A DNA stretch of 64,000 bases from Woeseiaceae bacterium (lineage in GTDB: Bacteria > Pseudomonadota > Gammaproteobacteria > Steroidobacterales > Woeseiaceae). This document shows, one piece after another, positions 7,729 to 36,800 of the stretch. The stretch's first letter is position 1. Each line of letters starts with the position of its first letter. Below the pieces are notes generated by a model. That model searched no databases and was not told the DNA's origin. It saw only the letters and a list, made by a program, of their open reading frames with translations. The DNA lies in NCBI GenBank assembly GCA_028277185.1, contig JANQGQ010000026.1, forward strand, positions 1-64,000, read 5' to 3'. Both the position numbers and the translations under genes were made by a program.

Positions 7729-9321
7729 ATGTCGCTAGAAACCATCGACATCGGTATCGTGATCGTCTACCTGATCGGCGTACTGATGTTCGGCGTCTGG
7801 ATCGGCCGCCGCGAGAATCCGGACAGAGCGGGTTTCTTTCTCGGTGGCAAGAACTTCACCTGGCCGCTGATCGGCATGTCCCTGTTTGCCACCCACATCT
7901 CGAGCATTCAGTTCGTCGGTCAGTCCGGTCTCGCCTATAGCATCGGCATGGCCGCCGCGAGTCCGCAGCTCACGGGGGTCATCTGCATCGCGATCTCGGC
8001 GATGTTCTTCATACCCGTGTACCTCCGAACGAGGATCTTCACGATCCCGGGCTTTCTCGAGCATCGCTACAACAAAACCGCCAAGCAGATCTATGCCGTC
8101 ATAGTGATCTGCTTCGGCCTGTGCCTGACGTCGATCGTCCTCTACTCGGGCAGCCTCGTCGCGTTGACGCTGTTCGGCCTCGATAACGACAAGCTGTTCT
8201 ATTGCGCGCTGCTCCTGGGTTTTGCAAGCGGGCTGTATGCCATCACCGGGGGACTGTCGGCCGTCGTTTACACCGATGTGATTCAGTCGGTCGTGCTGCT
8301 GGCCGGCGGAGTCCTCGTCCTGTTCCTCGGACTCAACGCGGCCGGCGGCGTGGGCGAACTCGTCAGTACGGTGCCGGAACAGCACCTGGAAATTCTCCTG
8401 CCCGCCGATCACGCGGTCATGCCGTTCACCGCCGTGTTCAGCGGGCTGTTGCTGATGAGCCTGTTCTGGGCGGCAAGCGATCAGGACCTGCTGCAGCGGA
8501 CACTCGGCGCGAAAGACCTGCGCAACGCGCAGCTCGGCATGCTCCTCGGCGGCTTTCTGAAGATCGTTGCCGTCTTCGTTCTCGTGTTCCCGGGCATTCT
8601 CGCCTTCAAACTGGTTCCGGGCGTCAACCCCGACCAGGCCTATCCGACCCTGATTCAGACCGTGCTGCCAATCGGCGTCTCGGGCATCGTGCTGGCAGGT
8701 TTGCTCGCGGCCATCATGTCGACGCTTGACTCGAGCATCATGTCATTGAGTTCGATCTTCACGATCGACATCTACCCAAGGTTTACGCGTAAGCTCGACG
8801 AGCAGCGGGCGCTCAAAGTCGGCCGGATCGCCGCCGTCACGATTCTGATCTGGGCGATCGTCACCGCTCCGCTCCTGCAGCACCTCGGGTTGATCTACCT
8901 GCTGCTCCAGAAAGTCATCAACTATCTGCTGCCCGCCGTAGGCGTGTGCTATGTCATCGGCCGGTTCAACAAACGGGTCAACGGTTTCGGGGCCGTTGTG
9001 ACGATGAGCCTGGGCTTCGTCATCGGCATCTCATTTTTGCTGATGACGACGGTACCCGCGCTGAAGGCAGTCAGTCCCGACATCATCGTAGAAGCCAATT
9101 TCTTCCACGTGAGCTTCTTTCTGATCCTGGCCTATGCGGCGATACTGCTGATCAGCAGCCGGATGCGGCCCGCGCCCGCGGTAGAGGACCTCGCGTTCAT
9201 GCAGCCGACCGAGGAGGAGCTGACCGAACGGCGCGCAAGGTCCCGCGGCCTGTTTGGCTCGTTCAGATTCTGGGTCGGCTTGTATGTTCTGGCGTTCCTG
9301 GCAGTCTTCGTTCTTTTCTGA
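7729..9321 (+). CDS. Sodium:solute symporter (SSS) family transporter
   Basis: 13-14 predicted TM segments and the SSF signature region (GGKNFTWPLIGMSLFATHISSIQFVGQSG). Confidence 0.8.
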   Translation: MSLETIDIGIVIVYLIGVLMFGVWIGRRENPDRAGFFLGGKNFTWPLIGMSLFATHISSIQFVGQSGLAYSIGMAAASPQLTGVICIAISAMFFIPVYLRTRIFTIPGFLEHRYNKTAKQIYAVIVICFGLCLTSIVLYSGSLVALTLFGLDNDKLFYCALLLGFASGLYAITGGLSAVVYTDVIQSVVLLAGGVLVLFLGLNAAGGVGELVSTVPEQHLEILLPADHAVMPFTAVFSGLLLMSLFWAASDQDLLQRTLGAKDLRNAQLGMLLGGFLKIVAVFVLVFPGILAFKLVPGVNPDQAYPTLIQTVLPIGVSGIVLAGLLAAIMSTLDSSIMSLSSIFTIDIYPRFTRKLDEQRALKVGRIAAVTILIWAIVTAPLLQHLGLIYLLLQKVINYLLPAVGVCYVIGRFNKRVNGFGAVVTMSLGFVIGISFLLMTTVPALKAVSPDIIVEANFFHVSFFLILAYAAILLISSRMRPAPAVEDLAFMQPTEEELTERRARSRGLFGSFRFWVGLYVLAFLAVFVLF

Positions 9322-10869: not shown

Positions 10870-11811
10870 TCATGAACCCGTGCCGGCCGGGCCCTCGAAC
10901 TCGAGTACCTGAAACTTTGCTCTGGCCACCGCCTTCTTCGAGCAGTTCGTCCGGATTTTCTTGCTCATGAAGGCCGGTCGCCGATCCGTTTGTCTGAAGC
11001 AGAACCGCCTCGGCAGGCGCGAGTAGATCGAGCGCGGAGGCTGACGGTAGCCCGTACGCTTGATGGCGGCTCCCGATTCCGGCGTGTGATAGAAGATCGT
11101 CCGGATACCGAGTTCCCGGCGCAGGAACCAGACGCTTGCCGCCAGCATGGCCTCGTCCCAGTGCAGGTGCTTAGTCATCTCTTCGTCGAAGTACTCGATC
11201 ATCGCTTCCTTGTGCACCATGAAACCCCAGCGCCCAAAACGGCCGCGTGCCCGCTCGGCCTGCTGCCGGAACTCTTTTGCAAAGCGCAGCCAGTCCGTTT
11301 GTATCTCTTCGATCAGCGCTTCGCCGTTCCCGAGGTCCACGTCGAATCTCGACCAGGCAAGCGTCGACCGCCGCTTCTCGATGACCGGATGGTCGAAACA
11401 CACGAACGGCATCTCGCCTTCCGGATCCACGAGCTGACGGTAAGCCTGATCGTGCTCGGGTGGGAAGTTGAGTTGCAGCACCAGGTTGTAACCGCGCCGC
11501 GTCGTTTGCATCCACCAGTCTTTGTTGGAACCCCACGTATCGAGCGTAAGCGAGTACGACTCCGGCGATGCGGCTACGCGGTACTCAAACGCATCGCGGG
11601 GCACCGCCCGGCCGCGGTGCTCAGCGAAAACCGATTTGACGACTGCTTTGTCGAGCAGTTGCGAGAATGTCGAACGCTTTACCTGACGCTTCCCGATCTC
11701 ATCGCCCAACATGCCGAGTAGCAAAAAGGCATAGCGGTCCCTGAAGTACCAGAACGGAGTCTGGCCTTTCGGCAGACAGTCGATGATCTCTTGTACCTCT
11801 GTGAGCTGCAT
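10870..11811 (-). CDS. Hypothetical protein (313 aa), no recognisable domain
   Basis: Long ORF directly downstream of the HNH gene on the same strand with a 27-nt gap; no clear SD. Confidence 0.5.
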   Translation of the reverse strand: MQLTEVQEIIDCLPKGQTPFWYFRDRYAFLLLGMLGDEIGKRQVKRSTFSQLLDKAVVKSVFAEHRGRAVPRDAFEYRVAASPESYSLTLDTWGSNKDWWMQTTRRGYNLVLQLNFPPEHDQAYRQLVDPEGEMPFVCFDHPVIEKRRSTLAWSRFDVDLGNGEALIEEIQTDWLRFAKEFRQQAERARGRFGRWGFMVHKEAMIEYFDEEMTKHLHWDEAMLAASVWFLRRELGIRTIFYHTPESGAAIKRTGYRQPPRSIYSRLPRRFCFRQTDRRPAFMSKKIRTNCSKKAVARAKFQVLEFEGPAGTGS

Positions 11812-11838
11812 GATCGTTGTCGATAAAGAAAGGACACC

Positions 11839-12450
11839 TCAGTCGGTGCCATTGATGTTGGCCGCGCACGCTACGCCGTCGGCCCCGGGTACGCGCAGTC
11901 GGCTGCCGGAGCCGACCCGCGTCCGCAGAAACTCCATCTGATCCGCGAGGATCAGCCGATTTTCCAGAATCAGCCCTTCGGCGCGGTTGGGTGCATACGG
12001 CACGGCCAGCAGCCGCATACCGATGGCCGCGAGGGCGTGATTGTCTTTTCTCTGGTTGCATGGCCTGCATGCGGTCACTACGCTTTCCCACTCATCGAGC
12101 CCGCCGGCGGACACCGGCACGACGTGGTCCCGGGTCAACAGCTCAGTCGGCAGCACTTCGCCGCAGTAGAGACACATGTAGTCGTCACGCCGGAACAGCC
12201 GCGGATTCGTGAGGGCCGGTGTACCAGCCCAGCCGTCGGCAGCTTTGTCGACCGCAGTCGTCGCGACGATCGAATTCACACGCAGTACCGACCGCAGCCC
12301 AGTGCGCCGCGAGTAGCCGCCGCGAAGAACGACATCCTCACGGCCCGCTTCCCAAGCGATTTGCTCGCGGCAGTACAGCAGCGCTCCGCCCTCGCGTGAA
12401 ATCCACGCTATTGGCCGCCCGCCGACGTCTAGTTTCAAGATTCTCGTCAT
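11839..12450 (-). CDS. HNH endonuclease
   Basis: HNH core (CLYCGEVLPTELLTRDHVVPVSAGG…ACRPCNQRKDNH). Start placed at MTRILKL (ATG at 12448-12450) to avoid overlap with the upstream tRNA-like gene. Confidence 0.65.
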   Translation of the reverse strand: MTRILKLDVGGRPIAWISREGGALLYCREQIAWEAGREDVVLRGGYSRRTGLRSVLRVNSIVATTAVDKAADGWAGTPALTNPRLFRRDDYMCLYCGEVLPTELLTRDHVVPVSAGGLDEWESVVTACRPCNQRKDNHALAAIGMRLLAVPYAPNRAEGLILENRLILADQMEFLRTRVGSGSRLRVPGADGVACAANINGTD

Positions 12451-12492: not shown

Positions 12493-12571
12493 TTGGTAGC
12501 CGCCCTCGGAGTCGAACCGAGAAACACCTGTTTCTGAGACAGGCAGGTATGCCAAATTCCCTTCAGACGGC
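12493..12571 (-). tRNA. tRNA-like gene of class I size with anticodon CAG (a leucine codon reader but no long variable arm); CCA encoded
   Basis: Hand fold: acceptor GGCCGTC/GGCGGCT (two G·U pairs), anticodon arm CCTGT-CTCAGAA-ACAGG, T-arm CTCGG-TTCGACT-CCGAG, discriminator A, CCA. The D-arm is weak and the D-loop is 12 nt. Confidence 0.45.
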
Positions 12572-12619
12572 CGGAGTGTTAGGTGGGAGGGTGCATTGCA
12601 CACCCTCCCGGGTGCCGAA

Positions 12620-13763
12620 TCACTGTTTGATGTTCACCAGTCCATTCAGCAGAGCGTCGAGACCGCCCACGACAGACAGATCACCGACGTTCTCGGTAAT
12701 CTTCTCGAGAGTCTCCAGCTCTTTGAGACGCAGCGCGACGTTGTTGCTTTCCATCACTTTCGCGGTGTTCAGCAGCGAACGGGTTGCGTTGGTCTCTTCA
12801 CGGCGACGAATGACGTTTGCCTGCGCCGCCTTTTCGGCTTCCACCACCTTGCCGAGCAGGTCTTTCATGTCACCCGGCAGGATGATGTCCTTGACGCCTA
12901 CGCTGATCACGCTGAGGCCGATCTCAGCGAAGCGCTTGCCGAGATGCTCCGCGATGTCGCGGTCGATCGCGGTCTTGTCCTCGAGCAGCGCATCCAGCTT
13001 GCGGGTGCCCACCGCCGCGCGCAGGCCGAACTGGATCTCTTTGTAGAGCTGGTCCAGCGGGTCCTTGAACGCGCGAACGGCTTTCGCCGCATCGACGTAC
13101 TGGTAGGTCGCGGTTACGTTGATACGCAGCGCAACCTTGTCCTTGGTCAGAATCTCCTGACCCTGGACTTCCAGCGCCTTGATGCGAAGGTCCACGAGCT
13201 CCACGGTCACGGCGTGTGCAACGTTCCAGTAGGCGTGCAGGCCGGCTGCGAGGGTGTCGGTGAGTTCACCGTCCACGTACAGCAGGCCAATGTGGCCGTC
13301 CGGAACAATGCGTGCGTAGACTGCCGCGTCAGCGACCGCCATTACGCGCGCGTTGCTGCCGATCACGAGGCGCTTCGTCAGGCGCGCATCCAGCGCGATG
13401 CCCTCGTTGAGGTCAAAGCGTTCGATGCGCACTTTCACCACGCCCTTCCAGTAGAGCGCGCGCTCCGCCGGGCCGAGCACGGCTGCCGCACGCTCGTTGA
13501 GGTAGATCAGCGCGACTTCGTCAGCGCCGGTCTCAACGATGTGGAACAGTCGCTCTACCTCGTCGCGCTCCGCCTCGACCAGGTAGTCGATCAGGCGGTG
13601 CTCGAACGCAGCGTCCGACAGGTCGAAGCGCTGTACCGCGTAGCGGCCGGTGCGGCCGAAGTAACGATACGTACCCGCATCGAGAAATTTGATGAAGTCT
13701 CCGTCCTTGAACAGGAGACCGCGTTCGTGCTTGCGCACGATGAACTTGCTGATGAACCACATG
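12620..13763 (-). CDS. SPFH/band-7 (slipin-family) protein
   Basis: Slipin-type N-terminus (MWFISKFIVRKHERGLLFKDGDF) and SPFH core. AAGGAG SD sits 8 nt upstream of the ATG at 13761-13763. The ORF-track start at 13984 is probably an artefact. Confidence 0.7.
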
Positions 13764-14253
13764 GTGCGTTCTCCTTCTCTTAATAAATCCGTCGGAAGAC
13801 GGACGATTTTTCGGCCGCGATACGTGCGTCGGTCCGGCCGCAGCATACGGGCTGGTCCTTCGCGCGTGGATGCGCCGCTCCATTTTCGCCAGTCGCTTAA
13901 GACCAGCCACTTTCGATCACCTCCTTTGTTGCGTTCACGCCTCTGCGTGATGGTTGACGATGTGAGATCGTCCCGGTCAGCCATGACCGGGACGCAAATG
14001 TGTGCGCCCGCTATCGCAGGAGTACCGCGGAGCGGCGGCGCCGGCCAACCGGGCGAGCGGCGCCCGAGGCGTCGGCCGTCGACCGCGAACGGCGAAGCGT
14101 TCGCGAGCGTCAGGCGGAAGCCACGGAGACCGCTGGCCGGATTGGCCCGGCGGATCGTCGTCGGCGACAGTCGTGCTGCGCGGACGGCCCGGGCATTCCT
14201 TGCGGAGGCCTGGGCGTCGTTGCCGATAGCGGACGCGGGTGGGGCGATACCTT

Positions 14254-14317
14254 CGCCATAGGGCGGATTCGAACCGCAGGCTTTGGGGCCTTTGCCTTGA
14301 GACCGCGTCGCGGTCAG
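14254..14317 (-). pseudogene. 3' tRNA fragment (T-arm plus acceptor 3' strand, no 5' half)
   Basis: TGCGG-TTCGAAT-CCGCC T-arm followed by CTATGGC-G. There is no room for a 5' half before the adjacent tRNA-Ile 3' end. Confidence 0.25.
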
Positions 14318-14318
14318 G

Positions 14319-14391
14319 TTGGAAATGCAAGACTCGAACTTGCGACTTCAGGTTATCAGCCTGATGCTCTAACCAACTGAGCTAATTTCCC
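14319..14391 (-). tRNA. tRNA-Ile(GAT)
   Basis: GGGAAAT-TA-GCTC…GAGC, anticodon loop CTGATAA, T-loop TTCGAGT. Apparent G1·A72 mismatch; CCA not encoded. Confidence 0.65.
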
Positions 14392-14503
14392 GTAGGCGGC
14401 TGAGTGCTAACGATACGCTCGGTACACACCGTGCGATGGGAGCTTGAGTGCGCCAGACGGGATCAAAACCCGAACCGCTGAACGCCGCTTGCAAGCTCAA
14501 CCC

Positions 14504-14580
14504 TGGTAGCCCGAGTCGGATTCGAACCGACGACCTCCGCTTTGTAAGAGCGGCGCTCTGACCAACTGAGCTATCGGACA
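14504..14580 (-). tRNA. tRNA-Val(TAC)
   Basis: Anticodon arm CCGCT-CTTACAA-AGCGG, T-arm GTCGG-TTCGAAT-CCGAC, CCA encoded. Position 1:72 is T·T. Confidence 0.7.
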
Positions 14581-14583
14581 ACA

Positions 14584-14729
14584 TGGTGCGGGCAGTGGAG
14601 ATTGAACGCAAGCGACGCTTGCTCGTCGTCGCTACGCGACAACGTCTGTCGCAGCGCTGCGCGCTGCTCGGTTGAGTCCACAACCCCGACGGTGGCGCCG
14701 TCGTGCTCTACCGATTGAGCTATGCCCGC
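14584..14729 (-). tRNA. tRNA-Gly(GCC)-like gene interrupted by a roughly 70-nt structured insertion between the T-stem 5' strand and the T-loop
   Basis: The 5' part (GCGGGCATAGCTCAATCGGTAGAGCACGACG-GCGCCAC-CGTCG-GGGTT-GTGGA) is a near-copy of E. coli tRNA-Gly(GCC). The 3' part (…TTCAATC-TCCAC-TGCCCGC-A-CCA) pairs perfectly with the 5' acceptor and the T-stem. The 70-nt insert between them contains three palindromic hairpins. C33 replaces the usual U33. Confidence 0.45.
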
Positions 14730-14736
14730 ATTGAAC

Positions 14737-14810
14737 TGGTCCGCCCTGAGAGAATCGAACTCCCGTCACCTGGGTAAAAGCCAGGTGCACAGCCACTATG
14801 CCAAGAGCGG
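14737..14810 (-). tRNA. tRNA-Lys(TTT)
   Basis: Canonical cloverleaf: CCGCTCT acceptor, anticodon loop CTTTTAC, T-loop TTCGATT, CCA encoded. Confidence 0.8.
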
Positions 14811-14919
14811 TAAAGCAGAAACTGGACCGCACAGTTTAACCCCTTTGCCAGATCATCGACTTCCGCCTCTTTCTGCGGGCGCACCGCAAAGAGCCTAGGT
14901 CGCAGCGCTTGACTAGGAG

Positions 14920-15162
14920 TTGTCCAATCAAGCTGATCGAACCGGTCAGGGTCTGGCGCCTAAACTTCCATCTGAAATCAATCGGCAGACGCTTGACCGG
15001 CTGGTTTCAGGGTACTATCAACTTCTGCGACGAAGTCAAAATGGCCGTTCACAACTAATCCCCGTATCGGGCGATATGCTCCAATACGCGAACGAAAAAG
15101 TACTTAGGAGTCCACTATCAACTCCGTCTCAGATTATGTGCAGCGACACCGCTCGGGTGTAA
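14920..15162 (+). CDS. Small hypothetical ORF (80 aa) overlapping the start of the protease gene
   Basis: ORF-track only, low GC, different frame from the downstream protease. It may be a separate small gene or a leader. Confidence 0.2.
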   Translation: MSNQADRTGQGLAPKLPSEINRQTLDRLVSGYYQLLRRSQNGRSQLIPVSGDMLQYANEKVLRSPLSTPSQIMCSDTARV

Positions 15163-15908
15163 TACACATACAATTCTTCCGGGCGGCCATGAGAATCGGC
15201 TCTGGCTCAGGTTTCTTGACTAACGACAAGCTGATCACGAACTTCCACGTATTCAACGCCCCGCCTGATGTAGAAGTAAGGTTAGGTTGGCAGCCTGACG
15301 AAGACGCTAGATCAAGGCAGGAACTCAGTGTCTCGTATAGTGAATTCTCTGGCTGGATGATATCGGGCTCGGATGAGGACCACTACGACTTTGCCATTCT
15401 TGATGGAGGTGAGTTGCCCTTGAGCAATCTGGCACAGTTTTCCTTCAATCTCCCGAGTAAACGTCTTGTCGGTCGTGATGTGCTGTTTCTGGGCTTTCCA
15501 TTAGAGCATTCAAACCTAGTCTGTCATCGGGGCATGATTTCCTCTACGTATCGAAATGCAGGCGTCGACATTATTCAGATTGACGCGAGCGTCAACCAGA
15601 GCAATTCTGGCGGCCCATTAGTCGACCTCGACACGGAGAACGTAATCGGAATAATTACACGAAAGGGTACTGGGCTATCTAAGCTGTTCGATGATCTAAT
15701 GAGAGCTTTCGATACCAACATTCAAGTTTTGACGGCAGGCGGGGCCAACATCTCCATGGGTGGAATCGACTTGAAGCAAGCGCTTACTGCAGGCCAAGCA
15801 CAAGTGAAGCAGCTATCGGCCGAGATTTTGAGGTCCGCCAACGTCGGAATAGGATACGCGTTCTCATCCGCGCAGATCCTCAACGACAACTCCATGCACG
15901 ACAAGTGA
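15138..15908 (+). CDS. Trypsin-like (S1/chymotrypsin-fold) serine protease, cytoplasmic, lower-GC gene
   Basis: Catalytic triad motifs TNFHVF (His), HYDFAILD (Asp) and SNSGGPLVD (Ser); no signal peptide. GC is visibly lower (about 50%) than the flanking DNA. Alternative start at 15189 (MRIGSGSGF). Confidence 0.65.
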   Translation: MQRHRSGVIHIQFFRAAMRIGSGSGFLTNDKLITNFHVFNAPPDVEVRLGWQPDEDARSRQELSVSYSEFSGWMISGSDEDHYDFAILDGGELPLSNLAQFSFNLPSKRLVGRDVLFLGFPLEHSNLVCHRGMISSTYRNAGVDIIQIDASVNQSNSGGPLVDLDTENVIGIITRKGTGLSKLFDDLMRAFDTNIQVLTAGGANISMGGIDLKQALTAGQAQVKQLSAEILRSANVGIGYAFSSAQILNDNSMHDK

Positions 15909-16118
15909 CGACTTGTCTTAGGGTTGATCCAGTGTTCGCTATTGGCCGAAAGTTGACCGACACCACCGCTTTGGTCAAGCCGCCACTGTAGGTCAAACGG
16001 ACACACAGCCCTAGCGATAAGTAGGCGTCTGAGTCTGCGATTGACAGGCGGTTGTTCATCACGCAATGCGACGGTGTTAATCCGTTACTCTGATTCAAGA
16101 AGTCGCGGGTAGATATGA

Positions 16119-16205
16119 CGGAGAAGCCAGGATTCGAACCTAGGTGGGACGCCTGGCCCCTCCCGTTTAGCAAACGAGCGCCTTAAACCACTCGGCCACT
16201 TCTCC
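16119..16205 (-). tRNA. tRNA-Ser(GCT)
   Basis: Class II, 87 nt: GGAGAAG acceptor, anticodon loop TTGCTAA, long variable arm, discriminator G; CCA not encoded. Confidence 0.8.
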
Positions 16206-16212
16206 ATGGTTT

Positions 16213-16288
16213 TGGGGTGAATGAACGGACTCGAACCGATATCAACCAGGGTCACGGCCTGGGGCTTTGCCATTAAGCTACACTCACC
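16213..16288 (-). tRNA. tRNA-His(GTG)
   Basis: Extra G-1 pairing with C73 (the hallmark of tRNA-His), anticodon loop CCGTGAC, CCA encoded. Confidence 0.85.
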
Positions 16289-16297
16289 GTCGTTAGT

Positions 16298-16385
16298 TGG
16301 CGGAGACTGGGAGGATCGAACTCCCAAACCCGTAAGGGCATCACCGGGTTCAAGCCGGATAAGCACGCCAGCCTTGCGAGTCTCC
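16298..16385 (-). tRNA. tRNA-Ser(TGA)
   Basis: Class II, 88 nt, anticodon loop CTTGAAC, T-arm GGGAG-TTCGATC-CTCCC, CCA encoded. Confidence 0.8.
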
Positions 16386-16395
16386 CTATAGAATT

Positions 16396-16473
16396 TGGTC
16401 TGGAAGGCTGGATTCGAACCAGCGCTGTCTCGGTTCCAAGCCGAGTACTCTGACCAGGCTGAGCTACTTCCAG
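16396..16473 (-). tRNA. tRNA-Pro(TGG)
   Basis: CTGGAAG acceptor, anticodon arm CTCGG-CTTGGAA-CCGAG, T-loop TTCGAAT, CCA encoded. Confidence 0.85.
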
Positions 16474-16479
16474 AAAAAG

Positions 16480-16555
16480 TGGTAGACCGAGGCTGAATTG
16501 CACAGCCGACCTCGCGAATATCAGTCGCGCGCTCTGCTTCCTGAGCTATCGGTCT
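16480..16555 (-). tRNA. Second tRNA-Ile(GAT)-like gene with a non-canonical T-loop (TGCAATT)
   Basis: Perfect acceptor AGACCGA/TCGGTCT, anticodon arm CGCGA-CTGATAT-TCGCG, CCA encoded. The T-loop has G at position 55 instead of the near-universal T/Psi. Confidence 0.55.
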
Positions 16556-16561
16556 ACAGAG

Positions 16562-16789
16562 TCATGACGCCAGAGGAACGAACGATCCTTCTCTGATCGC
16601 GCGCCGTATGTAGCGCATGAAGAGAATCGCCTTGTCTTCGAGCTCGAGGGTGGCGTCGCCGATGTCCTCGAGCGGAACAGGAAAGATGTAGTTGCCTTCG
16701 GCGGGTACGTTGACGCCGTAATAGGCAATCCCTTGGCGATACCGAACGAATCGAACGGTATTGTCTTTCACAATATCCTTGATGTTCAT
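16562..16789 (-). CDS. Small hypothetical protein (75 aa) embedded between tRNA genes
   Basis: ATG at 16787-16789 with a strong GGAGG SD 5 nt upstream. The ORF-track version (to 16882) runs into tRNA-Glu and is rejected. Confidence 0.5.
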   Translation of the reverse strand: MNIKDIVKDNTVRFVRYRQGIAYYGVNVPAEGNYIFPVPLEDIGDATLELEDKAILFMRYIRRAIREGSFVPLAS

Positions 16790-16811
16790 AGTGCCTCCGA
16801 AGACATGTTGA

Positions 16812-16887
16812 ATGGTGATCCGGACAGGATTTGAACCTGCAATCCCGAGGTTGAAAGCCTCGTGGCTTAACCATTCGCCCACCGGAT
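16812..16887 (-). tRNA. tRNA-Glu(TTC)
   Basis: GATCCGG acceptor, anticodon arm CGAGG-CTTTCAA-CCTCG, T-loop TTCAAAT, CCA encoded. Confidence 0.8.
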
Positions 16888-17297
16888 CGGTGATGCGGCG
16901 CTGCGGAGCGACAATCCGGCGCTCCGCCGTTGAGCTTCCGCAGCCAAATAGGAGACGGCCGAGACTAAGCCGTTTACAGCTACCCTTTGGCGGGAGTACC
17001 TGCCGCTTGCACGGCGGCAGTTGCCCGCTTGTCCACCGCCGCCCGGCCTGAGCCGACGCGACAGTAGATAGCCATGACTGCCTTTTTTGGAGTGAGGCGG
17101 TTCACTCGTCGTACGCATCTAGTCGGCAGTTTGCTTACCGTGAGCCTTGCGAGGCTCTGAATGGGGGCTACCCAACCGTGCGGCGCACTGCCAAGATCGG
17201 AACAGCTTGCGGCTGTTCAAACCGCCGAATTGCCGGAAGGCTTCGGCCTTAAGCCACTTTCGACACGTACCGAGGCGCGTCTTTGCGTTTCACATGT

Positions 17298-17372
17298 TGG
17301 TGCGTAATGCGGGATTCGAACCCGCGACCAATCGCTTTGGAGCGATAGCTCTCTCCACTGAGCTAAAAACGC
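17298..17372 (-). tRNA. Aberrant tRNA-like gene: anticodon stem ATCGC/GCGAT encloses a 6-nt loop TCCAAA (or an 8-nt loop with a 4-bp stem); CAA-type anticodon region; two T·T mismatches in the acceptor
   Basis: Good D-arm (GCTC-AGTGGAGA-GAGC), tmRNA-like T-arm GCGGG-TTCGAAT-CCCGC, ACCA 3' end; 5' acceptor GCGTTTT versus 3' ATTACGC. Confidence 0.4.
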
Positions 17373-17906
17373 AAACCCCATTTCGACGTGCGCGCCTCAG
17401 TCGCTTCGTCGCCTTTTGGACGACGAAATACGACACGCCGAGTATCGTTCACCTGCCGGCTACTTGATCGACGACGAGGACGCTGGCTGCACACCAGAAC
17501 CCTTGCCGTCTGCACAGTCGCACTTGCTTGCAAGGCTCGTACTCACTGCACTATTCGTTACCCCTCACGGTTGACGATGTTGGTATAGTGGGTTGCACCA
17601 CCACGTGTTCTTTGGCGGACCTGCATTCCCGGCGATCGCCGGTGCATCAGTCACGTTACTTCCGCGCATCGCTTGGCCGCTATCCCCGATACAGTCGAGG
17701 ACTCGGAGGCCGAATTGCCTGGAGTGACCGAAACCTCGGGTTCCGGCGAAACGCCATGGGAGCGTCCCTTTCTCGCCGTTGCCGACGGTTAGCAGCGCCA
17801 GGCCGCTAAACAGGCCTCGACCGAAGTCGATGACCTTGAATTCAGTGATCAATCGAACCTTGAAGGCTGGGCTTCGACGGCTCTGCTGGGTCCTTTGCCT
17901 GGGATC

Positions 17907-17981
17907 TGGTGCCGACGAATGGTAACGATCCACTCTCTCCGGGGCTTCAACCCGGCGCTAATCCTTCTCAGCTACATCGGC
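17907..17981 (-). tRNA. tRNA-Phe(GAA) with an unusual T-loop (ATCGTTA)
   Basis: Acceptor GCCGATG/CGTCGGC, anticodon arm CCGGG-TTGAAGC-CCCGG, CCA encoded. Confidence 0.65.
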
Positions 17982-17995
17982 GTTGTTGGAGGATC

Positions 17996-18068
17996 TGGAA
18001 CCCTCTGAAAGAATCGAACTTTCATAAGCAGCGTTCGAAGCGCCGCCACCGGGTCCACCGGAGAGGGT
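17996..18068 (-). tRNA. Aberrant tRNA-like gene, anticodon region TCG (Arg-type), non-standard D-arm
   Basis: Perfect acceptor ACCCTCT/AGAGGGT, T-arm GAAAG-TTCGATT-CTTTC, discriminator T, CCA. The anticodon stem carries G·U pairs around loop CTTCGAA. The D region folds only as a CCGG/CCGG hairpin with no 8-9 spacer. Confidence 0.4.
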
Positions 18069-33825: not shown

Positions 33826-36800
33826 CGATAGCGCGCGAAGACGCGCCGGCTCCGTGTCCGGCCGTTCGGCCTGCATCACGGCGCTGCTGCTTTTCGCAAA
33901 TGAGCCTGCAACGTCTTCGGAGCTGCGGCTCGAGATTGCTGAACCGCTGCGCGTCGAACTCGAGGGCGATGAGCAACACGTGTACGTCCTTCCGACGAGC
34001 GGAGCGCAAGGCGTATATGTGTTGATTCGTCAGCTCGGCGTGGACGTCGTTGTGACGGCCGACACGGCCGACGGCGAATCCTCGAAATGGGACGCGCCGG
34101 GTGCCGAGTTCGGCGTGGAAACTATCGAAGCAGGCAATGGCACGCGGGTTCTGGTCGCCGCCAAGAACCCAGGGGCGTCTGGAGGCAGTTACGAGATTCT
34201 CGTGCTGGATCCGGCCGGGCTGACGCCCGATCGGCGCCGTGCGTTGTCGCTGTCTGCCGGCGCAGGCGTCGAGTACGGAAGGGGTACGCAGGAGGGATAC
34301 AGCGAGGCCGGAGTCCGATACTCCAGGGCAGCCGCAGCCTGGTCAGCGATAGACGGCTGGCGCACGGCGTACTCTCACTATCAGGCGGCGACAGCGCATC
34401 GGCACTGGGACGAACAGAGTTCTGCACTGGAACACTACGAAATGGCGCTGGCGATACTGGAGGACACCGAGGAATGGTTTTTGCGCGGTCGCGTGCACAA
34501 CGGCATCGGCCTGATTCTTCTCGATCAGGGTCATCGAATCGCTGAAGCCAGAACCCACTTCGAAGCAGCGCTGGAGGCGGCGGAGGCAGTGAAGGATCAC
34601 ACTATCGTCGGAGCAGCGCTCAACAACATATGCCTCGTCGCCCGCCATCATCTGGGCGAGCTCCGGGAGGCCGCCGATTGTTATACGCGGGCTATCGCCT
34701 ACTTCGAGGCGAATGAGCGCGCGGACCAAAAGGCCTTTGCCACTTACAACCTTGCCGTCGTGCTCCGCGACCTCGGAGAGCCGGACGCTGCCCGGAAGCG
34801 TTTTGTCCAGGCGCTGCAACTCGTCCGCCAGCAGGACAACGCCTACGGAATCGCCAAGGTGTTGATCAATTGGGCCGAACTCGAACTGCAGACCGGTAAC
34901 TATCAGAGAGCCCTGAATCAGTCTCTCGAGGCTCAGGGCTTGTTCGACCGCGTGGGAAGAAAGAACGACACGGCCCGGGCTCATCGACTGCTCGGCCGCC
35001 TGTACGCCGAAACCGGAGCACCGGAACGCGCACGCACTCATTTGATACCGGCCCTGACGATCTTCGAAGAAGGAAAGCTCTACCGGGACGAGGCGGTGAC
35101 ACTGTTTCTGCTGAGCCGTCTGGCTTCGGACGGCGCCGAGGCGACCGCCAACCTACAGCGAGCGTTGAGTCGTGCCGATGACGATCCGATTCTCCAATCG
35201 CGCATCCGCCTCGAGCTTGCCGAGACGCTTCTTCTGACGGGCGATCTGGATGGCGCTGAAGAGCACATCGAAGCGGCCATGCAACTCGCCGATGACCGAG
35301 GCGCCGAGCTGCTCCGGGCGCAGGCCAGGCTGGCGTCTGCTCGTTTGCTTGCCGGTCGCGAAAGATGGCGGGAAGCGGCCGCGCAGGCAGTGCTTGCCAA
35401 GAAGAGTTTTTCCGGTATTCGGTACCGACTGGGAGAGATCGAGACGATCCTGCTGCAGGCGCGCTTGGCGGAGCATTTGACGACAGGACCGAGGAAGCGG
35501 GAGTTGCTCGTCGCGGCGATGCGCGTTATCGACGACTTGTGGTTGACGCTCGACGTGCCGACTCTTCGTGCATCGCTGCTCGCCGCGCACCGCGAGGCTG
35601 TCGAGCAGCTCGTGAACCTCGAACTGAATGCGAGCGGCTCAGAGAGCGCACCGCTCGCCGCACTGATATGGGTCGAGCGCAATCGTGCCAGGTCGTTTCG
35701 CAATACGGTGTTTGCTGCAGGCGGCCCGGACGATCGCAGGCTGGACGCGCTGGAAGGGAAGGTCACCGAAATGCGCTTCCTGCTGCAGCAGCTGTTGTCG
35801 GACGACTCGCCCGTCGACGAGTTCACGCGCACCCGACGCCTTGCCAGGATCGACACGCTGCAGGCACAGCTTGAGGGCGAAGTTGCGAGTATCCGCGATC
35901 AGATCGGCGACGTCTCGCCCTTCGAATTGAGGGCGCTCCAGAAGCGTCTGGCCGCCGATGAGGCTATCGTAGAGTTCTTTATCGGTATTGAAGACGTGGT
36001 CATTTGGTACATCGACAGGGATGTGGCAATGACGGCGAGGATCGACGACGCGGCAGCTCTTGAGGCGCTCGCGGTCGATGTCCACAACAGAGTCCGCGCC
36101 GAGCCGCAGACTTCCCGCGCCACTCACGACATGCTCGTGCGATTGCGCGATCAAACGCTTGGGCCCTTTTCTGCGCGCCTCGTCAACAAGCGTCGCTTGC
36201 TCGTCATCCCCGATGGCGGACTCTGGCTCGTGCCGTTCACCGCCCTTCCGGGATTCACCGATCCGCGACGGCCTTTGGTTCGCGATGCCGCGATTGCGTA
36301 CAGTCACAGCCTGGCAGCGGTGGGTCGTGCGAGCCCCGACCGCCGTCGCACCGATCCCGCGGGAGTCTCCGTGCTGGCTGTCAGCAACCCCGTCTACTCC
36401 GGCGACGCGTCTGCCAGCCGCAGCCTGCTGCGGCTACAGCCGCTGCCACGCAGTCGACATGAGGCAATCAGGGTTCTTGATGTATTTCCTAACGCGGAAA
36501 AACTTCACCTGACGTCGTACGAATCGTCGAAAGCCCGATTGCTGCAAACTCGCGGCGAGTTTACCTACGCTCTGCTTGCGGTTCACGGCGTGCTGAATTC
36601 CGGCTTCCCCGCGCTCTCGGGTCTGGTGCTGTCCGAATTGCAAGAAGATGGCAGTCTGGTAAACGGCTTTCTGAGCACAACGGAAGTGCGATATCTACCT
36701 TGGAGCGCCGAACTGACTTTCCTGAGCGGCTGCGATACTGCGGTTGGGCCACGCATCTACGGCGAGGGCCTGATCAGCCTTGCGAGGGAGTTCCTGACAA

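Follow-up and report, generated by a model that had tools for sequence, protein, structure and literature searches.

We report an interrupted tRNA gene and the insertion element that it contains, found in a 64,000-nucleotide (nt) stretch of DNA from a Woeseiaceae bacterium (GCA_028277185.1, contig JANQGQ010000026.1, positions 1 to 64,000 of the forward strand), which is referred to below as the window. Read on the minus strand from 14729 to 14584, the locus encompasses a complete tRNA-Gly(GCC) body, the T-loop of which is split by a 70-nt insert. The interpretation that we favor, and regard as probable rather than certain, is that this is a genuine gene of a long tRNA array whose T-loop (CUCAA^UC, with the caret at the point of insertion) is split by a sequence-specific, hairpin-built mini-insertion element related to the core of RtT RNA (RF00391).

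The minus-strand sequence of the gene reads GCGGGCA-UA-GCUC-AAUCGGUA-GAGC-A-CGACG-GCGCCAC-CGUCG-GGGUU-GUGGA, followed by 70 nt and by UUCAAUC-UCCAC-UGCCCGC-A-CCA; these final 23 nt show perfect complementarity to the 5' part. ARAGORN called no tRNA at this locus in the window, and Rfam also left it uncalled at the gathering score: the tRNA model RF00005 at a relaxed threshold gave 17.7 bits on the 5' part (gathering score 29). Once the 70 nt are removed, and only then, ARAGORN calls a 76-nt tRNA-Gly(gcc) with a clean cloverleaf. The fold of the 146-nt RNA (-72.4 kcal/mol, z = -3.9) comprises the acceptor, D and anticodon arms together with three hairpins. The same interrupted gene, with identical exons, is present in an independent metagenome contig (JAAUXY010046083.1, locus L006; related loci are designated by the letter L and a number throughout), so that the feature of the window is not an assembly artefact. 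The initial annotation, made from the sequence alone, had described a tRNA-Gly(GCC) gene with complementary halves and a 70-nt insert in the T-arm, had raised the possibility that the complementarity of the acceptor might vanish on re-examination, and had rejected both a group I intron and an anticodon-loop intron. The description is borne out by the sequence, by splicing in silico and by L006; the worry about an artefact is answered by L006 as well, and the rejection of both kinds of intron stands, given the length of 70 nt, the T-loop position and the lack of an Rfam match. The parts of the gene and of the element are as follows.

14677..14729, minus strand: tRNA-Gly(GCC) nucleotides 1-53, that is, acceptor 5' strand, D arm, anticodon arm, variable loop and T-stem 5' strand GUGGA (ARAGORN cloverleaf once the insert is removed; identical in L006)
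14672..14676, minus strand: first five T-loop nucleotides CUCAA, the left flank of the element (T-loops of empty-site orthologues: CUCGGUC in L005, CUCAGAA in L011)
14602..14671, minus strand: 70-nt insertion element of type B, CCGAG-H1-CGACAGAC-H2-GAG-H3-CGUUCAA (found in full length by the family model R2 described below)
14651..14667, minus strand: hairpin 1, GCAGCGC-GCA-GCGCUGC (fold and covariation)
14644..14650, minus strand: conserved unpaired linker (C)GACAGAC (invariant in the 28-sequence alignment A4)
14625..14643, minus strand: hairpin 2, GUUGUCGC-GUA-GCGACGAC, with one G.U pair (7 of 8 pairs changed on both sides; wobble position swapped in L006)
14608..14622, minus strand: hairpin 3, GCAAGC-GUC-GCUUGC (4 of 6 pairs changed on both sides)
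14584..14601, minus strand: final two T-loop nucleotides UC, T-stem 3' strand UCCAC, acceptor 3' strand UGCCCGC, discriminator A and encoded CCA

The boundaries of the insert are ambiguous over 5 nt because CUCAA...UUCAA form a direct repeat. The empty site of L005 (CUCGG^UC) and the rule that emerges from the family as a whole favor insertion after loop position 5 (58/59), which would place the element at 14602-14671; the TCAA...TCAA direct repeat at the window copy could be either a duplication or a part of the element itself. Three hairpins had been proposed initially and three are indeed present, but the one drawn as 'CGACAGACGTTGTCG' is not real, CGACAGAC being a conserved unpaired linker. 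Rfam also reported 'Transposase-2' for the insert, with 15.3 bits (E 0.5-2.8), which was dismissed as a chance similarity among GC-rich hairpins, and a 19-nt match at 36187-36205 of the window was judged to be a chance palindrome.

The window contains no second copy of the insert, but the insert belongs to a family of at least 35 members in related arrays. A motif search followed by nhmmer over 799 kb (about 0.8 Mb) of related tRNA-array loci detected 35 related inserts, the window contributing one, all of them inside tRNA arrays. Members share the layout CCGAG, hairpin, CGACAGAC, one to three hairpins, GAG, hairpin, CG.TCMA, with nearly all hairpins closed by a GNA triloop, and CCGAG and (C)GACAGA(C) are invariant across alignment A4. 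Type A has the consensus CCGAG GCGC-GNA-GCGC CGACAGAC GCAC-GNA-GUGC GCCC-GNA-GGGC GAG C-GNA-G CGAGUCMA; the window copy is of type B, in which the hairpins are longer and the GCCC/GGGC hairpin is missing, and L024 and L026 contain copies that fall between the two types. Model R2, built from three type-B copies in tRNA-Arg genes of L011, L031 and L005, with the window copy and its orthologue left out, finds the window insert in full length with 81.8 bits (E 1.8e-19), along with the L006 orthologue, a new T-loop copy in tRNA-Lys(CUU) of L021, and short and type-A copies. Model R1, built from type A only, finds 27 copies at E < 1e-5. These searches support one of the options listed initially, a miniature insertion element. 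Pattern scans of viral contigs for the junction and for the type-A motif gave 0 matches, and no description of the element was found in the literature on T-loop insertions, interrupted bacterial tRNAs and RtT.

MAFFT misaligned the mixed subtypes; covariation was analyzed in model-based alignments (A8 and A9). In these, 98-99% of the cells form pairs, and pairs with changes on both sides number 9 of 15 (A8) and 14 of 21 (A9); none of 500 shuffles reached the observed value in either alignment, and the slid controls collapsed. RNAalifold applied to the mixed alignment recovered only hairpin 1, since the subtypes differ in the number of hairpins. The identity among nine canonical copies, taken from different tRNAs and genomes, is 95%; of the 11 columns that vary, 4 correspond to the middle base of a GNA triloop, one for each of the four triloops. 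Three copies in L010 share a hairpin variant that is absent from the other loci, which suggests spread or conversion within that genome.

The choice of insertion sites follows a simple rule. In the loci fetched, copies occur only in 7-nt loops of array tRNA genes, mostly in T-loops and in some anticodon loops that read like a T-loop. Removal of CCGAG...TCMA leaves a 5-bp stem and exactly 7 loop nucleotides in 22 of 31 copies, the loop being split 5+2 or 6+1, and excision restores tRNAs of at least eight identities (Gly, Ser, Gln, Leu, Pro, Val, Arg and Glu). The anticodon-arm copies in tRNA-Ser(UGA) of L005 and L015 follow GGUUUGA (DNA GGTTTGA), and an antisense copy in L011 (1389-1450) is located in the anticodon loop GUUCGAA of tRNA-Arg(UCG), where the other strand reads TTCGAA; its excision restores the loop that is seen as CUUCGAA in the L006 orthologue. 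Type-B copies are antisense in the T-loops of tRNA-Arg and sense in tRNA-Gly, with the left flank GGAYTCAR in each case, and across the family the left flank resembles GGTTCR(N)A in either orientation of the tRNA. Given that a T-loop-like sequence is found at the exceptions and on either strand, the site appears to be chosen by sequence and not by position in the RNA. Relative to the array, 26 copies are sense and 9 antisense. Counted on the element's own strand, G.T pairs exceed A.C pairs in the stems by 17:4 overall and by 7:2 in the antisense copies, which implies that the hairpins are kept on the strand of the element even where the transcript carries the complement. These observations point to an insertion that would be sequence-specific and take place at the DNA level.

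Several array tRNA genes carry combinations of inserts or inserts of a different kind. The tRNA-Ser(UGA) gene of L005 (8306-8545) contains family members in both the anticodon loop and the T-loop, and tRNA-Lys(CUU) of L021 (640-860) combines a T-loop family member with an unrelated 52-nt insert in the variable region. A different insert of ~170 nt follows the anticodon of tRNA-Pro(UGG) in L005 (8088-8300); no group I intron match was found for it, and it shares the motif CTAAAGATCAATCCGCATC...GGGCGGATTGGGTTCGA with a copy at 9061-9203 inside a tRNA-Met-like remnant that precedes tRNA-Val.

A BLAST search of plasmid records with the type-A consensus retrieved Salmonella and Escherichia coli sequences with 30/30 identical bases (GCCCGAAGGGCGAGCGCAGCGAGTCAATCC). 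In Salmonella (L086, 1225-1544), tRNA-Ser(GGA) is followed by two repeat units, each of which ends ...GGGGTTCGA[CAACTGGCGCAGCCAGTTG GACAGAC ... GCCCGAAGGGC GAGCGCAGCGAGTC]AATCCCCCCCTCACCGCCA. Rfam assigns these units to RtT RNA with 50-51 bits, which serves as a working control, and R1, built without the Salmonella units and from sequences lacking flanks, finds them with 39.3 bits (E 3e-8). The query matches all 5,426 E. coli RefSeq genomes, with 'RtT sRNA' annotated at the tRNA-Ser locus in the records inspected. The tyrT unit of E. coli K-12 reads AAGGTTCGA[CTCGAG-CGCCAGCG-AGAGAGC-GTTGCC GCA GGCAAC-G-ACCC GAA GGGC-GA-AGCGC GCA GCGCT-GAGTA]ATCCTTCCCCCACCACCA, and the annotated 171-nt E. coli rttR spans the related core and ends at CCA. 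The K-12 locus (L087, 1286000-1288200) contains 178-bp tyrT repeat units in which the annotated tpr open reading frame (ORF), encoding a 29-aa 'protamine-like' protein, runs through the hairpin core.

The correspondence extends to both position and internal order. In RtT RNA, as in the window gene, a hairpin-rich core lies inside the T-arm (GGTTCGA...AATCC) and is followed by the acceptor 3' strand and CCA; shared features of the core are (C)CGAG, a hairpin, a purine-rich linker (GACAGAC or AGAGAGC), hairpins with GNA loops including GCCC-GAA-GGGC, GAG, another hairpin and GAGT.A. The two differ in that RtT consists of tandem 3'-fragment repeats downstream of an intact tRNA whereas the window element is inside a full-length tRNA and forms no tandem unit, and in that the type-B copy of the window lacks the GCCC-GAA-GGGC hairpin. 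The window locus gave no RtT match at E <= 10. By the Rfam threshold, the window element therefore counts as a relative of RF00391, not as one of its members, and the RtT units can be read as putative 3' fragments of tRNAs whose T-loop carries the same kind of insert. The initial option of a T-arm-extended tRNA-like RNA with another function is plausible, considering that the family is related to the RtT core and that the rttR annotation retains this core. According to a recent preprint, the mode of action of rttR is still unknown.

The tRNAs that host the element are well conserved. Between the window and L006, the exons show 0 differences in 71 positions compared with 8 in 75 for the element and its loop flanks and about 8% for the neighboring spacer, and the changes in the element fall in loops or amount to a swap of the wobble position. 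In interrupted tRNA-Glu(CUC) of L028 and L037, ~30% of the exon positions differ, nearly all of them through compensatory change in three stems (D, anticodon and T), and the identity of the element is 87%. The four orthologues of interrupted tRNA-Val(UAC) keep all stems, with a covarying T-stem (GGCAG/CUGCC versus GGCGG/CCGCC). For tRNA-Ser(UGA), the body is conserved in all four states of insertion that we encountered, namely no insert (window), T-loop (L011), anticodon loop (L015) and both (L005). From these comparisons, the interrupted tRNA bodies appear to be under purifying selection and not decaying.

A part of the evidence bears on the view that the locus is simply a dead gene, in which a selfish mini-element would have inactivated a redundant array tRNA, the chimeric RNA and the element would have no role, and the locus would be too young to have decayed. 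This was the disrupted pseudogene of the initial annotation, and we consider it unlikely, if somewhat less so than the other alternatives. Elements are found only in redundant array tRNAs and in both orientations; arrays show frequent gene gain and loss and other types of inserts; and some copies and hosts are clearly degenerate, such as the copy at 8794-8855 of L005, with a mismatched host stem and eroded motifs. One tRNA slot with an antisense copy also looks degenerate in L005 and L006, and the tRNA-Gly lineage itself has unusual loops: the anticodon loop of the window gene, GCGCCAC (14689-14695, minus strand), has C33 and not the canonical U33, and the restored T-loop CUCAAUC is not of the T54-Psi55-C56 type. 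Yet the uninterrupted orthologue of L011 has an identical anticodon loop GCGCCAC, so that C33 is a trait of the lineage and not a sign of decay. The contrast between 0/71 and 8/75 differences, the retention of all stems by compensatory change in interrupted tRNA-Glu, tRNA-Val and tRNA-Ser of lineages whose slipins are only ~60-90% identical, the ~95% conservation of the element across very divergent genomes, and the long persistence implied by the relationship to the RtT core all argue against a plain dead gene, a possible reading but a poor match to the conservation data.

Quite apart from the insert, the array tRNA-Gly(GCC) lineage departs from the canonical form: C33 is present in the window, L006 and L011, and the T-loops CUCAGAA (L011, 1577-1652), CUCGGUC (L005, 8986-9060) and UUGGAGU (L037, 3292-3366) do not conform to UUCRANY. 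In L005, an uninterrupted tRNA-Gly(GCC) occupies the corresponding Lys-Gly-Val slot, and several other tRNAs of that locus are interrupted.

The interrupted gene is located within an operon-like array of co-oriented genes, 7 nt after tRNA-Lys and 3 nt before tRNA-Val.

12494..18384, minus strand: long tRNA array with 16 called tRNA genes (ARAGORN) and the interrupted tRNA-Gly, with a slipin gene (12620-13762) embedded
14737-14810 and 14504-14580: the immediate neighbors, tRNA-Lys and tRNA-Val, respectively

A small helix-turn-helix (HTH) gene precedes the array, and an HNH endonuclease gene and a conserved gene for a 313-aa protein are located downstream; the flanks are chromosome-like (sodium:solute symporter, TPR and CHAT proteins, subtilase). 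Hundreds of homologs of the slipin, with 60-96% identity, come from metagenome-assembled genomes (MAGs) of marine and sediment Gammaproteobacteria (under names including Pseudomonadota, Lysobacterales and Granulosicoccus), and their contigs, L003-L005 among them, carry syntenic arrays. A gene for RtcB lies between the HNH gene and the 313-aa gene in L005 (14810-16219), L008, L009, L011, L012, L026, L052 and L053. In L003 and L004 the gene is truncated, and the window (11812-11886) and L010 lack it at this position. A distant RtcB, with about 48% identity, is found in the same neighborhood of the slipin clade. The window array matches the 'L-array' type of long tRNA array as outlined by Santamaria-Gomez et al. 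2021 (PMC8421152), and the Anabaena TrcR regulon study (PMC10272220) describes a tRNA operon, an HNH gene, rtcB and a slipin gene that are co-regulated under translational stress. Common to these arrays and the present one are at least 16 co-oriented tRNA genes and linked genes for HNH, slipin and a small HTH repressor-like protein, with RtcB in the relatives of the window array; in the present case, by contrast, all partners share a single chromosomal locus of Gammaproteobacteria, and the array has a GOLLD RNA within it. A term search of PMC8421152 and PMC10272220 returned no mention of T-loop-interrupted tRNAs.

The linkage to RtcB is the starting point for a second alternative, namely that the insert is a true mini-intron, released from the pre-tRNA either by self-cleavage, with 2',3'-cyclic phosphate and 5'-OH ends as products, or by an as yet unknown endonuclease, after which RtcB would join the halves into a 76-nt tRNA-Gly, mobility in DNA being secondary. 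We consider this rather improbable. In its favor are the location of RtcB beside HNH and slipin in eight arrays (those listed above), the co-regulation of rtcB, the HNH gene and the slipin gene with a tRNA array in Anabaena (PMC8421152, PMC10272220), the restoration of an exact 7-nt loop, the compensatory changes in host stems, the 26:9 sense bias, and the decayed look of the antisense-bearing slot in L005 and L006. On the other side, ribozyme models (hammerhead, twister, pistol, hatchet and HDV-like) had no Rfam match at E <= 10 in 14575-14740, and neither Intron_gpI nor any other intron model matched the window locus at the same threshold, so that the self-excising RNA element considered initially finds no support. 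A hammerhead-like reading of 'GAGUC' was ruled out because the CUGAUGA and GAAA core is missing. No bulge-helix-bulge motif could be drawn by inspection; a possible 4-bp UUCG/CGAR helix with one-sided bulges can be seen in type-A copies and, by inspection, not in the window copy. We know of no tRNA splicing endonuclease from bacteria. Furthermore, elements are present in the window and L010, where RtcB is absent at this position, and in L003 and L004, where it is truncated; the related rttR of E. coli is annotated with its core retained; an antisense copy lies in the otherwise intact tRNA-Arg(UCU) of L011; and wobble pairs track the element's own strand and not the transcript.

The archaeal non-canonical tRNA introns, whose known positions include the T-loop, resemble the element in being short interruptions of tRNAs that are intact in other respects, and a gene for an RtcB-type ligase is found close by, but the element studied here offers no drawable bulge-helix-bulge, resides in a bacterial host, has a conserved primary sequence and includes antisense copies. 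Bacterial group I introns also interrupt tRNA genes and are mobile, as is proposed for the element, but they are at least about 200 nt long, against 70 nt here, occupy the anticodon loop instead of the T-loop, and are excluded by the lack of an Rfam match. Still more doubtful is the broader proposal of a new class of bacterial tRNA mini-introns, mobile, T-loop-specific, excised and religated by the array-linked RtcB, under which the array tRNAs would be conditional under translational stress and RtT would be a fossil of an intron-bearing tRNA. An in-situ expansion of the T-loop, evolved in this tRNA lineage as a functional, non-mobile tRNA-like RNA, is highly improbable: RtT-type RNAs do exist as stable species and the hairpins covary, but the empty sites of the tRNA-Gly orthologues in L005 and L011 and the finding that eight or more kinds of tRNA host the same element, sense or antisense and sometimes in the anticodon loop, largely refute it.

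The interpretation as a mini-insertion element has evidence to reckon with as well, and the following points weigh against it. R1 gives the type-B copies, the window copy included, only about 16 bits, and a sequence hidden Markov model of type A only misses the window copy; its probable link to type A and to RtT rests on R2, the intermediate copies (L024 and L026) and shared motifs. The RtT units of E. coli K-12 have weak R1 scores, and the Rfam RtT model (threshold 45 bits) stays below threshold on every array copy, the best being 21.7 bits in L011. The covariation alignments are fitted to the models, and the restriction to arrays applies to the loci fetched. No transposase or other mobilizing enzyme was found in the loci. 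Finally, long-shared insertions with well-kept host stems and a 3:1 sense bias would equally fit an element that is removed from the RNA.

Under the mini-insertion interpretation, the element would target the T-loop consensus (GGTTCR^A-like) in DNA, on either strand, and such targeting would account for the predominance of T-loops, for the occasional anticodon loops reading TTCGAA or TTTGA and for both orientations. A single-stranded DNA intermediate would be in keeping with hairpins kept on the element's own strand. C-GNA-G triloops reportedly form unusually stable DNA mini-hairpins (Hirao, Yoshizawa and co-workers, in the 1990s), and such stability would fit a single-stranded stage. The chemistry might resemble that of IS200/IS605 or REP elements, or gene conversion between T-arms might be involved. 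Miniature inverted-repeat transposable elements (MITEs) derived from IS200/IS605, and REP/REPIN sequences, are likewise short and non-coding, with hairpins flanked by conserved unpaired motifs; orientation to a short target, the lack of a clear target duplication and hairpins kept on one strand would be further points in common. In contrast to those elements, the present family sits in tRNA loops and not in intergenic space, has three or four small hairpins in place of two subterminal hairpins or a single long one, and came with no Y1/HUH gene. Neither a Y1/HUH nor a RAYT gene was present among the called genes of L001 and L003-L005 or among the proteins scanned. The HNH domain of the array-linked protein is generic. 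Its neighbor, the 313-aa protein (10870-11811, minus strand), has ~860 homologs, all hypothetical and including proteins from Woeseiaceae, and recurs beside HNH, RtcB and slipin; it showed no sequence match in Pfam, NCBIfam, PADLOC or the PDB, and its AlphaFold model (predicted local distance difference test, pLDDT, 88; predicted template modeling score, pTM, 0.90) gave only non-significant GNAT-like fold matches (E >= 0.07). This protein was dropped as an excision or transposition enzyme, having no family match and no significant fold match.

Because the gene is separated by 3-7 nt from its neighbors in a co-oriented, operon-like array, it should be co-transcribed with them, almost certainly so. 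Normal end processing would then give a 146-nt tRNA-like RNA that retains the element, as we expect by analogy with rttR. Since the tRNA body appears to be under purifying selection, this chimeric RNA is probably used, or further processed, in the translational-stress response served by such arrays.

The array contains several further features. A near-threshold match to GOLLD RNA (RF02032; 16956-17441, minus strand; 146 bits versus a gathering score of 150, E 1.3e-39, full model) lies mid-array and encloses an ARAGORN 'tRNA-???' at 17298-17372 whose anticodon has four bases (ccaa); the upstream stretch of 465 nt (17442-17906) has no assigned feature. The 112-nt spacer between tRNA-Val and tRNA-Ile (14392-14503, minus strand) is almost invariant in the window, L003, L005, L006, L010 and L011, forms a T-arm-like hairpin CGGG-UUUUGAU-CCCG and has no Rfam match; covariation is invisible here because the spacer hardly varies. 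Between tRNA-Glu and tRNA-Ile, a 75-aa ORF (16565-16789, minus strand; MNIKDIVKDNTVRF...) is 83-100% conserved in seven arrays and has no family match. A trypsin-like protease gene (15138-15908, plus strand), on the opposite strand inside the array, was found in no related array; the sole relative found, 39% identical, is from a Dehalococcoidia MAG, without tRNAs, and the gene fills the slot of a tRNA-Arg-like gene of the relatives. The Logan contig SRR20820733_3336 (L001) encodes a protein identical to the window symporter (7729-9321), with the same genes upstream of the array, and stops within tRNA-Leu(CAG) (window ~12535), where the array begins to border on its flank, which may reflect a break in the assembly or variation of the array. 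BLAST comparison of the array with phage records, near and distant, gave only generic tRNA matches.

The interruptions known from bacterial tRNA genes are, to our knowledge, group I introns of the anticodon loop. The element described here is short, conserved and structured, recurs in the T-loop of tRNA genes that are otherwise intact, and appears to behave as a sequence-specific mobile unit. We are not aware of any description of RtT as an insertion element, and the relationship proposed here offers a concrete origin for this RNA, tying an RtT-like element to tRNA arrays that are inducible by stress and linked to genes for RtcB, HNH and slipin and to a GOLLD RNA. Standard tRNA finders undercount the genes of such arrays, and the existence of tRNAs with T-loop inserts raises the directly testable question of whether bacteria process, use or splice them.

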